Source: a virus (taxonomy: Duplodnaviria; Heunggongvirae; Uroviricota; Caudoviricetes). From it: 11,052 nucleotides of DNA. Within the stretch, counting starts at the first letter, position 1. Every line of letters begins with the position of its first letter. Below, one piece after another: positions 4,701 through 11,052 of this stretch. The translations under genes and the position numbers were made by a program. The notes beneath the pieces were generated by a model, which saw nothing but the letters and a program-made list of their open reading frames with translations, was not told the origin of the DNA and ran no database searches. Location: the IMG/VR virus record IMGVR_UViG_2667528155_000009. One strand, 5' to 3'.

Positions 4701-5204
4701 TTACAACAGATGGTCACTGGTCATGTCTCTGATACTGCTGGCGGTAACTGCTTCGTAGCGTCTGTATTGCTTGTATGGCTTCATCACACTCCCGTTCAAA
4801 ATCCGTAACAGGCGCACCAAGAAGTACCGCATTTGCCACTGCGGTTTTTTTAAAAACTGTGTAAGCAGATACTCGATGCTATGCCCTGCCGTGACCTGCT
4901 TATGCAGCTCCGGCGCGTGTATCCGGATTGCTTCAAGAACTGCGGGGATTAGCGCTGAAAACTTTTCGCGGTGCTCTGTCGTTTCGAGTTTTCGCCATCG
5001 CTGAAAAATGTTTATACGATTCCGGCGCCATGCTTCGTAATCCACCGTTCCGTCATCACGTTCTATACGGTGGACAGCAATATCTGGTCTCACTTGCTGT
5101 TCCAGAAAGGCGCGGGTGATCAACTGTGTTGCACTTTCCTGACTCATTGCGGGTGTAGCCAGCCAGGATGACAGTGCTTTGTTGGCATCCTCAGGGGTGA
5201 TCAT
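4701..5204 (-). CDS. YdaT-like protein (167 aa), occupying the cII-equivalent position
   Basis: Immediately downstream of the Cro-like gene; segments LITRAFLEQ and SALIPAVLEAI resemble Rac YdaT as I recall it. GAGGTG 7 nt upstream of the ATG; the start overlaps the end of the Cro-like gene (translational coupling). Confidence 0.55.
   Translation of the reverse strand: MITPEDANKALSSWLATPAMSQESATQLITRAFLEQQVRPDIAVHRIERDDGTVDYEAWRRNRINIFQRWRKLETTEHREKFSALIPAVLEAIRIHAPELHKQVTAGHSIEYLLTQFLKKPQWQMRYFLVRLLRILNGSVMKPYKQYRRYEAVTASSIRDMTSDHLL
4714..4730 (-). repeat. Boundary motif copy 1 (encodes the YdaT-like C-terminus RDMTSDHLL)
   Basis: Plus-strand TCACTGGTCATGTCTCT; identical 17-mer at 4125-4141. 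Confidence 0.7.
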
Positions 5205-5466
5205 CGTTGTTCACCTCTCTCGCATCCTTTAGTGGTAGATTTTGATGGCTAGGCAAAGCATCCGTTGGATTAGGGTAAAGAACTGAGTCGAGCTGATGCG
5301 GTGTAACTGCATACCCTACGGCCTCACAAAAAGGAATAATTCGTCGCGGTGGGAATTTTCCTGTTGTAACCCATAGACTTACGTTTTGCTGACTAGTTTT
5401 AAGACGTCGGGCGATCTCGGTCTGATTAGTGATGCCGAATAGTCGGCTCCTGGTTTTAAATTCCAT
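5191..5466 (-). CDS. Cro-like / YdaS-family HTH regulator (91 aa from the ATG at 5466)
   Basis: HTH segment ITNQTEIARRLKTSQQNVSLWV; C-terminal IIPFCEAVGYAVTPHQL resembles the YdaS pattern. GGAGG 4 nt upstream of the ATG at complement 5464-5466; the ORF-track start at 5484 is a GTG. Divergent from the repressor gene. Confidence 0.7.
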   Translation of the reverse strand: MEFKTRSRLFGITNQTEIARRLKTSQQNVSLWVTTGKFPPRRIIPFCEAVGYAVTPHQLDSVLYPNPTDALPSHQNLPLKDAREVNNDDHP

Positions 5467-5484
5467 ATATCCTCCAAATGTCAC

Positions 5485-5568: not shown

Positions 5569-6003
5569 ATGAAAAAAAACAACGAATCAGCTCAATACGA
5601 GACTTCAGCCAGAAGGATCAAACAGGTCCTGTATGAATTAGGCTGGAACCAAAGTCGCCTGGCTAAAGAAATTGGGGTTTCAGCTCAGGCGGTACAACAA
5701 TGGGCAAAAGGTACTTCTCGACCGAATGGCCCTAATCTAACTCGACTTTCTGAAGTCACAAGCAAACCTGAAGCATGGTTTTTCAGTGATGTCAGCGGGT
5801 TATCTGAGAGTCATGCAGTACATTTACCAGAAAGTAATGGTTCAGACTTTCTCCCGCTTAGCGATGAAGAGATCAGACTGCTAACTGTCTTCAGGAAATT
5901 TCCTTCTGTAGAGAGTAAAAACATGCTGTTAGCGTTTGAGATGAGACTTCAGGAGATAAAAGAATACTATTCCAAATACGCTAATCCCAATAAAAACCGA
6001 TAG
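5569..6003 (+). CDS. DicA/RacR-like prophage repressor (HTH_XRE, 144 aa, no S24 peptidase domain)
   Basis: HTH NQSRLAKEIGVSAQAVQQWAKG; C-terminal LSDEEIRLLTVFRKFPSVESKNMLLAFEMRLQEIKEY parallels DicA as I recall it. Divergent from the Cro-like gene across the operator region. Confidence 0.8.
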   Translation: MKKNNESAQYETSARRIKQVLYELGWNQSRLAKEIGVSAQAVQQWAKGTSRPNGPNLTRLSEVTSKPEAWFFSDVSGLSESHAVHLPESNGSDFLPLSDEEIRLLTVFRKFPSVESKNMLLAFEMRLQEIKEYYSKYANPNKNR

Positions 6004-6239: not shown

Positions 6240-6428
6240 GTGGACAAGACTGAACTGAAACACATTATCGCCCTGCTCCTGGAAGATGCAAAACGTCTTC
6301 AGCAGGTTGAACCAAATGCAGGCACTGAGGCCCGCATATGGTTGGCTAATAAAACACTTAATTCATTCAGAGAGTTAAGCGGTTTTGCAAGAGGGTCAGG
6401 TATCTCTACCGAACACCAACTTTCTTAG
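6240..6428 (+). CDS. Hypothetical small protein (62 aa, GTG start)
   Basis: GAGG 8 nt upstream of the GTG; first ORF downstream of the PL-like promoter. Overlaps the convergent minus-strand zinc-ribbon ORF by 23 nt. Uncertain. Confidence 0.3.
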   Translation: MDKTELKHIIALLLEDAKRLQQVEPNAGTEARIWLANKTLNSFRELSGFARGSGISTEHQLS

Positions 6429-6594
6429 CTAGCGCCTCCATAATAATAGAATGTCGTTCGCTAAGAATGCCGATTGCCGCCCCGCAAAGTGCACACTGAA
6501 CGAAGTGAATAATGTGACTGCAATTTTTCACTGAGGAATTGGTTTTTAACTCAAAAGAAGTTGATGGGCATTTTGGACAGGTTGTTACAGCCAT
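6406..6594 (-). CDS. Small zinc-ribbon-like protein (62 aa; CPKC ... CALC)
   Basis: Very good RBS (GGAGGG, 6-nt spacer, ATG at complement 6592-6594); Cys pairs CxxC and CxxC about 25 residues apart; conserved element A lies upstream on the minus strand. Confidence 0.45.
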   Translation of the reverse strand: MAVTTCPKCPSTSFELKTNSSVKNCSHIIHFVQCALCGAAIGILSERHSIIMEALAKKVGVR

Positions 6595-6660
6595 ATTTTA
6601 CCCTCCACGGGGTCGATGTTGGTGGAGTTCCCGACGGACGAGGTCGGGAATGTGCGCCGG

Positions 6661-6709
6661 ACACAGGTATAAATCCGGCATACGAAATTCGTATCACATG
6701 CAGGATATG
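6661..6709. repeat. Conserved intergenic element, copy A; contains the perfect 15-bp palindrome ATACGAAATTCGTAT (6680-6694)
   Basis: Same ordered blocks as copy B at 1561-1607. The palindrome is formed only in copy A. Confidence 0.6.
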
Positions 6710-6728
6710 TATTTAAACACGAGCACAT

Positions 6729-6803
6729 AACCGAAAACGCACTACGCAGAACCTTCCTTGTCGGGTCTGTCGTTAAATTTACTGCGATAGTGCGTTTCCG
6801 GTT
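6729..6803. repeat. Long imperfect inverted repeat (about 21-bp arms, about 32-nt spacer)
   Basis: AACCGAAAACGCACTACGCAG (6729-6749) against the reverse complement of CTGCGATAGTGCGTTTCCGGTT (6782-6803); one mismatch and one bulge. Confidence 0.55.
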
Positions 6804-6824
6804 ATGAGTGAAAATCATAACAGT

Positions 6825-6887
6825 GCTGTGTGTAGTCTTTGACGGTATCCGTTAACAAAGTTTTCCTGGCTGATACCGTCCTTTTTC
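6825..6887 (+). ncRNA. Candidate DicF-family sRNA with intrinsic terminator
   Basis: TTTGACGGTATCCGTT is close to the DicF core TTTGGCGGTATCAGTT as I recall it (14/16). Stem GACGGTATC (6841-6849) / GATACCGTC (6872-6880) is followed by CTTTTTC. Lies in the PL-like operon downstream of a DicA-like repressor, the position where dicF sits in Qin. Confidence 0.4.
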
Positions 6888-7071
6888 AGAATGAATTTTA
6901 TAGTGTGGTGAATGCGGCTCAGCGCACGTGACACAGTTAAAAACATGTCAGTCCTTCATCTGTTGATGGGTGGGAATGTTCGTCGGCAGTAATGGTTAGC
7001 TGTTTACTGTCACCGGGAGGCACCCGGCACCACACTCCAAAATTCATTGTGTTACCAGAATGGAGACAACT

Positions 7072-7362
7072 ATGCCAGTTACACCTGAAATAAAACAAAA
7101 CTCAGACTGGATGCGGCGCAACAAATCTGAACAAACCGCCCCTGCCTGTAAGCCTGGTATTATTCAGAAAATATTAAGTACGCTGAACCAGAAAGGTGAC
7201 CCCACCCTTATTCCTTGCGCTTATTGTGGCAAAGCCATCAACAAAAGTGAAATCGTGGAGCATGAACTTATTTATATAAACGGAAGTCAGCTCGCAAGAA
7301 AAACGAATCTATATTGCAGTAAACGATGTGCCGAATATGACCAGATGGCACATGAATCTTAA
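7072..7362 (+). CDS. Zinc-ribbon-like hypothetical protein (96 aa; CAYCGK ... CSKRC)
   Basis: GGAG 5 nt upstream of the second ATG at 7072; the ORF-track start at 7060 lacks an RBS. Confidence 0.55.
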   Translation: MPVTPEIKQNSDWMRRNKSEQTAPACKPGIIQKILSTLNQKGDPTLIPCAYCGKAINKSEIVEHELIYINGSQLARKTNLYCSKRCAEYDQMAHES

Positions 7363-7914: not shown

Positions 7915-10900
7915 ATGAGTGATAAGAAAGAAGATTTCGCGCTGTACTGCCCTGTTAAAAATGAAGAGGCCAGGAAACGACTTGGAATAAAAGCAGGCTT
8001 TTTCTGGGCAACTGCAAAAAAATTATCTGTGGCTGTTTCCCGCTGTATTGCTGCTATGGACGATAAGGGGTATGACGAGGATGACTTTAAAAAACCTGTT
8101 CGCGTCAATTACCCCGTCGTTAACGACCTGCCTCCTGAAGGCGTGTTTGATACTGAATTCTGCAACCGTTACGAAAAAGGCGGTCAGGGTGGTATCACAA
8201 TGGTACTTATCCCCGGCGCTGTTCCCGCCGATCCAATGCACGGCGAAGTCGGCAGGGATATTACTGGCAGCGGCAACGCAGACGCAGACGCAGACGCAGG
8301 CACAGACGCAGATAATGCTACGGACAATACCGAAAGTACGCTCCTCCCCGCTTACGCTTATAACGTCAACGGCGAACTGATGTCGGAAGTGGAAAAGGAA
8401 ATGTCGCAGCCTGTTTCAGGACTAAGTCTGCCACTTCGTTTCCTGGCGCAATTTAATAACGACTGTCCACAACATCAGGTCACACCAGAGCGTTTACGGG
8501 AGTTAAACCTTACAGAGCAGGATCCCGACAGTCGTACCGGAACTATTTTACTCGCCATCCAGAACAGAAAGGAACAGCTCGAAAAACTGGACACAAAAAA
8601 CCTGCATCCTTTGGCGACGTACATTGAAAAAGTATTTCCCTGCGGAAAACGACCACAACTCAATGATGTCATTAATTTTATCGATGCCGTACTTAATACA
8701 GACTATGTCGATCGCGGACTGCTCGTTAAGGAATGGTGCGAAGGTCGTCGAGCCGCGTGCGTAGAGCATGTAACAGCACCAGAAACCAGGCGTGATAATA
8801 CTGTGTCAGCGCAGACGGAAACGAAGACTACTGTCACTGAACGTCCGCGTCGTAGCGAAAAAACAACGCACCGGACGATTAATTATGAAATTGGCTGTGG
8901 CTTATATGACGGCGAGCTGGATCTTCATAACCTGAGGGAACCGCTGGATTTTGCGAAACGCATTATGGCGAAAGACCGGGAAGACTGGAAAGTATGGTCA
9001 GACACAATCAACTGCATCCCTGGCATCCTGAATTATGACCGCCAGACCATTATCGAGATGGTACGAAAAGCCCCCACCCCGACTTATCACAGTGCTGCAC
9101 TGCGCCGCGAGTGGTGTGATTCTTATCTGCGAGCCTGGGGACGGCTCGATCCCGACTGGAGCCAGAGCGCCGCTGTCAAAACAGCAGAGTCACATGAAGA
9201 TGTCTGTGCTGATATCAGGAAGGCCGGAAAGCGCCTGCGTGAAATTGAATCAGGAGTTGGGATCAATGAAGAAAAACAGACGACACAGGGAGAACTGGCA
9301 GATGAACCGTCAGCGCCTGAATCAGTGGAACCGGCTTCAGCTGAACATCAGCAGAATACGCAGCCGCTGGATGCTGAGGCATCTGTAAACACCACTAAAA
9401 CGGAATTCGATGTATTTGCTCTAATGCAGAACTCATCTGTTTATGGCAGCAAAAACACACAGGAGACGACCAGCAATGTGCAGGTTCAGGACGCTGAAAA
9501 GGATGAAAAACAGGCTGGTACTGAAGTTCAGTCAGGCGAAAGCAGTCTGGGAACTGGTGAAGAGTCAGATACCAGACAGCAAGCCGATGTAAACCAGAAT
9601 ACGGATTCTGTCGCCCAAAATAGCGATTCTGTAAACCAAACTGAACCAGTTTTGGCACAAACCGAGCCAGAAGTGCAATCTGACGAACCGGCTGTTGTTT
9701 ACCCCGCTTACTTCGAACCAGGCCGCTATGAGGGTCTGCCGAACGAGGTTTATCACGCAGCCAACGGTATCAGCTCGACAATGGTAAAAGATGCGCGGGT
9801 GAGCCTGATGTACTTCAATGCGCGCCACGTAGAGAAAACCATTATCAAAGAACGCTCTCCTGTACTGGATATCGGTAACCTGGTGCATGCACTGGCGTTG
9901 CAGCCAGATCAACTCGATGAAGAATTCAGCATTGAACCCGTAATTCCGGAAGGTGCATTTACCACCACGGCAACGATCCGCGCGTTTATTGATGAGCACA
10001 ACGCCAGCCTGACAGCGATGCTGTCAGCCGACGACATCAAAGCACTGTTAGAAGAGTACAACGCCACCCTTCCTGCTCAGGTTCAGTTAGGTGGTTCCGT
10101 GGAGGAAACTGGCCAGAGCTATATGTCGCTGCCAGAAGAGTTCCAGCGTCTCGAAGCGGACAAGAAGCAGACCGCAGCGGCAATGAAAGCCTGCATCAAG
10201 GAATACAACACCACACTGCCTGCACAAGTGAAAATCAGCGGTAGCCGTGATGCGTTACTCGAGCAGTTAGCAATCATCAATCCTGACCTGGTGGCGCAGG
10301 AAGCGCAGAAGCCCGCGCAGTTGAAAGTGTCCGGCACCAAAGCGGATCTGATTCAGGCCGTGAAGTCTGTTAATCCTGATGCCATCTTCGCCGACGAACT
10401 GCTGGATGCGTGGCGCGAAAATACGCAAGGGAAAGTGCTGGTCACCCGCCAGCAACTGAGCACTGCACTGAGCATTCAGAAAGCCCTGCTCGAGCACCCT
10501 ACAGCGGGCAAGCTACTGACACACCCGAGCCGCGCCGTTGAGGTGAGCTACTTCGGTTTTGACGACGAAACCGGTCTGGAAGTCCGCGTTCGTCCCGACC
10601 TTGAGATCGATCTTGACGGGGTGCGCATCGGCGCCGACCTGAAAACCATCAGCATGTGGAACATTAAACAGGAAGGTCTGCGCGCCAAACTGCACCGCGA
10701 AATCATCGACCGTGACTACCACCTGAGTGCTGCCATGTATTGCGAGACCGCAGCGCTTGACCAGTTCTTCTGGATTTTCGTCAACAAAGACGAGAACTAC
10801 CACTGGATCGCCATCATCGAGGCATCCGCCGAACTTCTGGAACTGGGCATGCTGGAGTACCGCAAGGCAATGCGCGCCATCGCTACCGGCTTTGACACTG

Positions 10901-10977
10901 GCGAGTGGCCAGCGCCGATCACCTCCGGTAACTCCGATGAAATAGCCGACTACACCGACGAACTGAACGATTTCGAC
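7915..10977 (+). CDS. recE: RecE-like exodeoxyribonuclease VIII, 1021 codons with no stop; 3' end replaced by the chimeric junction
   Basis: C-terminal PD-(D/E)XK-like block RVRPDLEIDLDGVRIGADLKTIS; position at the distal end of the PL-like operon of a Rac-like immunity region; GAGG 10 nt upstream of the ATG. The reading frame runs into N's and 16S sequence after codon 1021 (DFD). Family call is from recall, not a search. Confidence 0.7.
8275..8310 (+). repeat. In-frame tandem hexanucleotide repeat (GACGCA-like, 6 units) encoding a D/A-rich low-complexity tract
   Basis: AACGCA GACGCA GACGCA GACGCA GGCACA GACGCA, translating to NADADADAGTDA. Confidence 0.7.
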
Positions 10978-11052
10978 NCNTGCCATCNGANGNGCCCAGA
11001 TGGGATTAGCTAGTAGGTGGGGTAACGGCTCACCTAGGCGACGATCCCTAGC
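10978..11052 (+). rRNA. 16S rRNA gene fragment (about 75 nt, enterobacterial, corresponding to roughly positions 220-290 of E. coli 16S); not native to this locus
   Basis: TGCCATCNGANGNGCCCAGATGGGATTAGCTAGTAGGTGGGGTAACGGCTCACCTAGGCGACGATCCCTAGC matches the conserved 16S region as I recall it. Abrupt junction with N's at 10978, 10980, 10988, 10991 and 10993, inside what would otherwise be the RecE-like coding frame. Confidence 0.8.

Follow-up and report, generated by a model that had tools for sequence, protein, structure and literature searches.

A Rac-type prophage terminator and candidate small RNA with an RprA-like 5' arm and a DicF-related hairpin

Positions 6825-6887 of the viral DNA analyzed here (a stretch of 11,052 nucleotides, called the window throughout) form, as judged from their sequence and conservation, a real small-RNA/terminator module that is conserved and lies in the early operon of a Rac-like prophage. 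Our main reading, to which we give a probability of roughly 55%, is that the element is a Rac-type module of the DicF superfamily whose targeting region is RprA-like and not DicF-like, and that it serves as a terminator and as a candidate Hfq-type sRNA. DicF is the textbook example of a prophage sRNA; RprA, a core sRNA that has been studied in depth, belongs to the Rcs envelope-stress response. The features of the window are as follows.

5191-5484, minus strand: YdaS/Cro-like gene
5569-6003, plus strand: DicA/RacR-like HTH repressor gene (Pfam HTH_3, 3.5e-10; PHROG transcriptional repressor families)
6240-6428, plus strand: small phage ORF of 62 aa between the repressor gene and the element (phrog_30817, 8e-21)
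6805-6841, plus strand: RprA-like single-stranded 5' region, TGAGTGAAA...TGCTGTGTGTAGTCTTTG, equivalent to RprA nt 45-80
6816-6887, plus strand: whole candidate RNA according to the family model, about 60-72 nt, 5' end variable
6824-6837, plus strand: invariant 14-nt box TGCTGTGTGTAGTC, the proposed seed, identical to the conserved 3' box of RprA
6841-6880, plus strand: terminator hairpin with a 9-bp stem, GACGGTATC/GATACCGTC, and a 22-nt loop, from folding and covariation
6882-6886, plus strand: T5 tract, the predicted termination point and presumed Hfq-binding 3' tail
6880-7084, plus strand: STnc100-like structured leader (Rfam RF02076), running into the start of the next gene
7060-7362, plus strand: YdaE-family gene in the kil/dicB position (phrog_6751, 1.5e-32; PF27493 YdaE in related contigs)
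7915-11013, plus strand: gene for a RecE-like exonuclease VIII of 1032 aa, downstream in the same operon (Pfam Exonuc_VIII, DUF3799)

Gene context and hairpin of the element

By its gene content, the window is a Rac-like lambdoid prophage. The repressor gene lies upstream of the element on the same strand, and its exact protein is present in E. coli and Salmonella. Replication genes on the minus strand encode a DUF1376 protein, an IstB/DnaC-like ATPase and a CII-like activator. The 62-aa ORF is also called as a gene in related contigs. Gene callers place the start of the YdaE-family gene at 7072, for a product of 96 aa (96-100 aa overall) that is neither KilR nor DicB; with this gene in the kil/dicB position, the prophage may lack a known division inhibitor there. 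An ORF of 110 aa, also on the plus strand, separates it from the RecE-like gene, which has 83% DNA identity to recE of phage HK225. The first-pass annotation had located the element between a DicA-like repressor and the recombination gene, in a PL-like operon comparable to the setting of dicF in Qin. Both points are borne out: HTH_3 at 5569-6003 and the RecE-like gene at 7915-11013 flank the element, and the gene order is that of dicA...dicF-leader-dicB, with the same STnc100-like leader following and with the DicF-typical placement in the early-left operon after the repressor.

The element is identical in 8-9 near-identical prophage copies found as related contigs. Exact matches to window proteins in draft genomes of E. 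coli and Salmonella enterica point to one of these species as the host. Complete E. coli genomes gave no near match to the window, and its own lineage was not among the results of the scan of species-representative genomes. A prophage copy that is near-identical in other respects (L169, 3908-4917) departs from the window 477 nt past the repressor gene; there, a 283-aa Ash/pRha-domain gene replaces the element and leader just before the YdaE-family gene.

The 9-bp stem and U tract described in the first-pass annotation are present. On the plus strand, GACGGTATC (6841-6849) and GATACCGTC (6872-6880) form a stem free of mismatches that encloses a 22-nt loop, and a C followed by TTTTT (6882-6886) lies directly 3' of the stem. 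Folding 6825-6887 as RNA reproduces just this hairpin and leaves nt 1-16 of the segment single-stranded; its energy is -15.4 kcal/mol (z = -2.78), a stability matched by 2 of 200 shuffles. Since no T tract follows the stem on the reverse strand, we assign the element to the plus strand only. The pair A6842-U6879 is changed on both sides from the usual G-C, giving GACGG/CCGUC in the window versus GGCGG/CCGCC, and the stem arms GACGGUAUC/GAUACCGUC with U5 make up a GC-rich terminator of the GGCGG/CCGCC type known from DicF. A simple terminator scan of the window did not list the element, whose U tract has 5 U only and whose 22-nt loop is long for a terminator. Sequence and covariation support the terminator structure, from which we infer termination itself.

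A scan for consensus promoters upstream of the box was empty, -10/-35 candidates picked by eye were unconvincing, and no convincing RNase E site was seen just upstream of the element in the window. The context AACGA(C)AUUG of RprA and Rac reads AACAGUG in the window. A coding role for the segment was considered and rejected. The minus-strand ORFs at 6815-6946 and 6585-6818 have no protein-family match, 1-nt indels occur among the homologs, and the 12-codon plus-strand ORF at 6804-6842 has no ATG in Rac-type homologs.

The STnc100-like leader scores 39.5 bits against RF02076 (E 9.6e-7 with 4227 families counted), narrowly missing that family's gathering score of 47. It is also found between dicF and dicB and between the Rac element and kilR. 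One leader hairpin shows a compensatory change, with CCGGG/CCCGG here versus CCTGG/CCAGG elsewhere (CCGGGAGGCACCCGG versus CCTGGAGGCACCAGG).

Resemblance to RprA and to DicF

The 5' region at 6805-6841 aligns to RprA nt 45-80 with a local score of 40, versus 15.1 +/- 2.1 for shuffles. A Rac-like copy in Citrobacter matches RprA nt 48-81, the window and Citrobacter together scoring 40-45. Across six elements, scores against RprA nt 45-80 run from 33 to 45, with shuffles at about 15 +/- 2, a separation of more than 10 SD. The box together with the adjoining TTTG is identical at 18/18 positions (6824-6841) to the Rfam RprA consensus box UGCUGUGUGUAGUCUUUG; it is invariant in every Rac-type sequence (alignments A1, A3 and A5) and unpaired in the minimum-free-energy fold. 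Relative to E. coli Rac-type copies, the window carries a 6-nt insertion (6805-6814) that creates UGAGUGAAA, equal to RprA nt 45-53, and this is the only portion of the RprA 5' stem-loop and central targeting region that it has. The Rfam RprA model (RF00034) gives 30.1 bits at 6767-6888 (E 0.097 with 4227 families counted), short of its gathering score of 70; authentic rprA scores 118.5 bits against the same model. The RprA-like nature of the unpaired 5' part, evident from the 18/18 box and the alignment score, had escaped the first-pass annotation.

The central targeting region of RprA (nt 31-69) pairs with the narP TIR, and the hdeD seed hairpin begins at nt 31. UGAG, which lies inside UGAGUGAAA, is needed for the RprA-narP pairing (PMC9262595). 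A processed form of RprA, consisting of the last 47 nt, coexists with full-length RprA and is active alone in vivo (PMC9262595). The processed sequence is AAUUGCUGUGUGUAGUCUUUG followed by the terminator. No STnc100-like match occurs downstream of rprA, so the RprA homology is confined to the RNA itself. The window holds no complement of the box elsewhere along its length, and hence no phage-encoded target was found in it.

The candidate assignment to the DicF family had been made in the first-pass annotation from a motif close to the DicF core. The Rfam DicF model (RF00039) does find the element, at 6827-6881, with 24.1 bits and an E of 0.0034 in a 351-nt search corrected for 4227 families. 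This targeted DicF search is clearly better than chance though under the curated threshold, the gathering score being 48; the lack of a hit at that level is half of what had been named as counting against the assignment. Across the whole window, every Rfam family stays below its gathering score. As for the core, TTTGACGGTATCCGTT at 6838-6853 agrees at 14/16 bases with TTTGGCGGTATCAGTT of authentic dicF (E. coli O157, E2348/69); the motif is the 5' arm of the terminator, not the targeting part of DicF, and the reported closeness of the 5' part to DicF holds for that arm only. Relative to the DicF type, this arm has a G-to-A change, for which a C-to-U change in the 3' arm compensates.

The 5' end of DicF, UUUCUGGUGACG, pairs with xylR and pykA. 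This seed is missing in the window, where AACAGUGCUGUGUGUAGUC stands in its place. Also missing is UUUUACUCCGUGACUG, the loop of DicF that forms its ftsZ-pairing region (PMC5069750), the loop of the window being unrelated (CGUUAACAAAGUUUUCCUGGCU versus UUUUACUCCGUGACUGCUCU). With both known pairing regions missing, canonical DicF function is unlikely. Duplex energies computed against the E. coli ftsZ initiation region, for full-length RNAs and for 16-nt windows, do not separate true DicF from shuffled controls. Through its hairpin and position, which are shared, the element is related to dicF in both location and sequence; this much of the family assignment stands, and the part resting on model score, 5' seed and ftsZ loop does not.

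Two further observations concern dicF loci themselves. The RNA annotated as dicF_1 in EPEC RIL-seq data is canonical DicF and is therefore uninformative on box-type elements. In dicF-dicB loci (L177 600-860, minus strand, and L004), the leader downstream of the DicF seed GGTGACGTT contains its perfect complement, AACGTCACC. This complement sits at the foot of the CCTGGAGGCACCAGG hairpin and might form a long-range duplex with the DicF seed, possibly a processing site. The box of the window has no such complement in its own leader.

Homologs, family models and alternative seeds

Over about 300 nt, the region 6765-7075 is about 72% identical to the DNA that immediately precedes kilR, both in Rac-like phages and in E. 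coli K-12 Rac; of 5426 complete E. coli genomes, 4327 contain homologs of the region. The E. coli Rac-type homologs score 35-41 bits by the DicF model and 31-44 bits by the STnc100 model. The presence of dicF-like sequences in Rac was reportedly described by Faubladier and Bouche in 1994. An alignment of the window, three Rac-type loci and one dicF-dicB locus shows a stretch common to all from the terminator arm (TTGGCGG) to the downstream start codon. It spans the leader of about 190 nt, and the gene that follows is dicB, kilR or a YdaE-family gene. Upstream of the stem the aligned loci differ: DicF has TTTCTGGTGACG, and the window and Rac type have ATTGCTGTGTGTAGTC.

A pattern search for the box plus the start of the stem, run on one genome per species, returned 39 loci, nearly all in Enterobacterales; genera with the box include Escherichia, Shigella, Citrobacter, Enterobacter, Klebsiella, Raoultella, Serratia, Erwinia, Mixta, Buttiauxella, Izhakiella and others. 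The 46 distinct box-bearing sequences that we collected include E. coli K-12 Rac and represent 15 enterobacterial genera or more. In 46/46 the box lies 2-3 nt before the terminator stem and a run of at least 4 T is found downstream; of 45 sequences folded as far as the T tract, 43 have this run immediately 3' of the hairpin. The hairpins are GC-rich and of variable length. Among 14 members other than the window, 97.5% of stem cells are paired, and 4 pairs contribute 14 double-changed cells; none of 500 shuffles reaches the observed value, and every slid control is at most 64% paired. Box-type elements also come from assemblies labeled Martelella, Chryseobacterium, Pseudomonas lundensis, Nanosynbacter and further non-enteric names (L009, L012, L014, L016, L019, L031, L034 and L037). 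The flanks of several of these are identical to E. coli Rac or Serratia-like, which likely reflects assembly contamination.

Two covariance models relate these sequences to one another. Model R1 was built from DicF-type and third-seed elements, free of the box, and finds the window at 6816-6887 with 18.5 bits (E 0.044) and K-12 Rac with 37.5 bits. Model R2 was built from 14 box-type elements with the window left out. It scores the window at 59.9 bits (E 1.4e-13), the sole strong match there, and also recognizes nt 54-106 of chromosomal rprA (32 bits, E 1e-6) and canonical dicF (27.3 bits, E 1e-5). We define from this analysis a family of Rac-type prophage modules consisting of an RprA box plus terminator. 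The window element has the invariant box, the 2-3 nt spacing, the covarying terminator, the U tract and the location in a lambdoid early-left operon that characterize the family. By these features and its R2 score, it is a clear member of a family bridging DicF and the 3' half of RprA, and it is the most DicF-distant member examined.

Viral contigs were also scanned for a conserved piece of the leader, and the sequence upstream of the leader was compared. This position is taken by canonical DicF, the RprA-box type, hybrids, a third seed, or no terminator at all. In the hybrid at L050, CATGTGTAGTC stands on a DicF terminator, and variant boxes occur in L089 and L053. The third seed, CATGTTGATTACC, is found in L115, L125, L154 and L048. 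Loci in which differing 5' arms stand on related terminators before the same leader (L050, L053, L066, L089, L115, L125, L154, L048 and L085) look like the outcome of seed swapping by recombination. The inner stem and loop of the window resemble those of L125 and L048, so the element itself looks recombinant, its RprA-type 5' arm joined to a different variant of the terminator.

PasD1 of EPEC is an abundant sRNA stabilized by Hfq (PMC8550237). In E. coli E2348/69 (L176, 361-533), it begins with STnc100-like sequence, GGTGAATCC...GGAGGGGC, and continues with UUGUGAGUUCUGGCUGCG and a terminator. The PasD seed UGUGAG, deduced from RIL-seq targets, aligns with the box position under R2 in a weak match of 13.7 bits, an alignment that ties PasD to the box-type modules. 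In loci that we call type B (L006, L033, L036, L039, L041 and L044), the RprA box and terminator come right after an STnc100/PasD-like 3' hairpin. Both the PasD seed and the type B box lie just before the terminator, which suggests that this is where seeds sit in the family. In a type C (L007, L008, L011, L013, L021, L027, L030, L042 and L043), a terminator hairpin of 60-68 nt is followed by a different structured leader, ACACAACAGAAAAGGGCATCACCGGGCGACGGGC..., and then by YfdP/YfdQ-like (DUF2303) genes. In the type B and C loci that were checked (L011, L039 and L041), the box and terminator lie downstream of a same-strand cI-like repressor gene.

Possible roles and comparison with known systems

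Under the main reading, the early-left operon would be transcribed rightwards, on the plus strand, once repression is lifted or by read-through from the repressor gene, as synteny with Rac and Qin suggests. Some polymerases would stop at the hairpin and U tract (6841-6886), with partial termination expected at 6882-6887. The 5' end would be produced by RNase E-type processing upstream of the box, as it is for DicF and processed RprA; DicF itself arises by termination combined with RNase E/III processing and is Hfq-dependent. The product of about 60-70 nt would have an unpaired 5' arm with UGCUGUGUGUAGUCUUU, one hairpin and a U tail, and would bind Hfq. The putative seed box probably acts on RprA targets instead of DicF targets; it would pair with mRNAs that have GACUACACA-like sites, and the mRNAs reached would be targets of the RprA 3' domain. 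That domain reportedly activates ricI in Salmonella, a result attributed to Papenfort et al. in 2015. Polymerases that read through would continue into the STnc100-like leader, the YdaE-family gene and recE, and the hairpin would meter the expression of these.

The box and hairpin might instead work in cis only, as an early-left intrinsic terminator or insulator like tL, the box assisting termination, processing or factor loading for the downstream leader or gene. We regard this as a serious alternative and still as rather unlikely. It would explain why the unit is always found within an operon, between an immunity repressor gene and a structured leader plus genes, in three contexts, and why the first stem arm GGCGG is conserved along with the box. 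It would not account for the sharing of the box and about 20 upstream nt with RprA, a stand-alone trans-acting sRNA whose gene has neither such an operon context nor an STnc100-like leader. DicF and PasD, relatives with the same layout, are proven trans-acting Hfq sRNAs, and seed swaps among homologous modules fit targeting regions rather than a fixed cis signal. Against the sRNA reading counts the fact that the Rac copy is in a normally silent operon, and box conservation could reflect a cis function or repeated phage recombination instead of selection by trans targets. A more specific cis mechanism is attenuation, in which the box, paired with the terminator's 5' arm, would make an antiterminator, and read-through into the kil-position gene and recE would be switched on or off by a factor that binds the box. 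RNAalifold, run on alignment A3, proposes pairing of GCUG/UGU with (U/C)A(C/U)CAG of the 5' arm, and the box resembles the 3' arm of the Rac terminator (GCUGAUGU). The alternative hairpins, however, reach only -5 to -7 kcal/mol with z from -0.7 to +0.6 (window, Rac, type B and DicF), one proposed pair is broken in the window (U-C), none shows changes on both sides, and the box is unpaired in the full-length fold. We therefore rejected an antiterminator as the main function, its energy being weak and no better than that of shuffles, and think attenuation improbable.

The element could also be an ordinary DicF ortholog that represses ftsZ and the known DicF metabolic targets. The sub-threshold Rfam match, the genomic context and the 14/16 agreement in the terminator arm would all be expected of one; a score of half the gathering score, a replaced 5' seed and an unrelated ftsZ-pairing loop would not, and we hold such an ortholog to be, if anything, a shade less probable than attenuation. 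That a chance hairpin lies beside a chance match and has no biological meaning might be argued from the shortness of the motifs and the sub-threshold database scores. The independent family model R2, the conservation in at least 15 genera, the compensatory changes in the stem and the RprA alignment scores far above shuffles all speak against it. We treat the chance reading as excluded by these comparative data (covariation, R2 and RprA alignments) and as very improbable indeed.

A tentative proposal, which we consider less likely than not, is that the RprA 3' half and the Rac-type prophage elements share ancestry, that the box is a mobile seed module, and that prophages encode a mimic of processed RprA. 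Such a mimic would be present in prophages from Escherichia to Serratia and Erwinia, K-12 Rac included, and induction would plug the phage into the host RprA regulon, with its control of envelope stress, biofilm and conjugation. Either rprA would have taken its 3' domain from a prophage module, a concrete origin story for part of RprA, or phages would have taken theirs from rprA. DicF, the RprA-box elements and PasD would form one superfamily swapping seeds on a common terminator scaffold, and a phage would be able to imitate a host regulator instead of sponging it.

The combination of an RprA-type arm and a DicF-type terminator, found where dicF would lie, suggests seed exchange on a shared scaffold as a way in which phage sRNAs diversify, and the copy in the Rac prophage of E. 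coli K-12 makes the idea easily testable. For annotation, DicF-superfamily elements with other seeds slip under Rfam thresholds. Terminator sequences of the dicF-like kind have been known in other prophages since the 1990s. The full-text literature searched, with the box sequence among the terms, has no mention of an RprA link of the prophage element, and an earlier description may exist.

Among known systems, the Rac element upstream of kilR in E. coli K-12 and Rac-like phages is a direct homolog: its 14-nt box is identical, its covarying terminator follows at the same distance, and it precedes the same leader. The window differs from it in the type of terminator loop and inner stem, which are near those of L125 and L048, and in scoring lower by DicF models (24 versus 35-41 bits with Rfam, 18.5 versus 37.5 with R1). 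With DicF of the Qin dicB operon, the element shares its place: both lie in the early-left operon past a DicA-like repressor gene, and the STnc100-like leader of a small host-directed gene comes immediately after. Also shared is the terminator of GGCGG...CCGCC plus U tract, with 14/16 agreement in the 5' arm, and R2 recognizes dicF. Unlike DicF, it carries an RprA-like region instead of the 5' seed UUUCUGGUGACG, an unrelated loop, and a downstream gene of the YdaE family rather than dicB.

Like processed RprA, the element consists of an unpaired box, a UUU spacer, a terminator hairpin and a U tail. Unlike RprA, it has no 5' stem-loop and no AUCCCCUG of the central targeting hairpin (nt 31 onwards), its terminator sequence is different, and it sits in a prophage operon, whereas rprA is a stand-alone Rcs-controlled core gene between ydiK and ydiL. 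Like PasD1 and PasD2, it has its putative seed just before the terminator, and type B relatives have the RprA box in that PasD position. In PasD, however, the order is the reverse of that in the window, where box and terminator come first and the STnc100-like element then serves as the leader of a gene, and PasD is located in the late region, before a holin gene.
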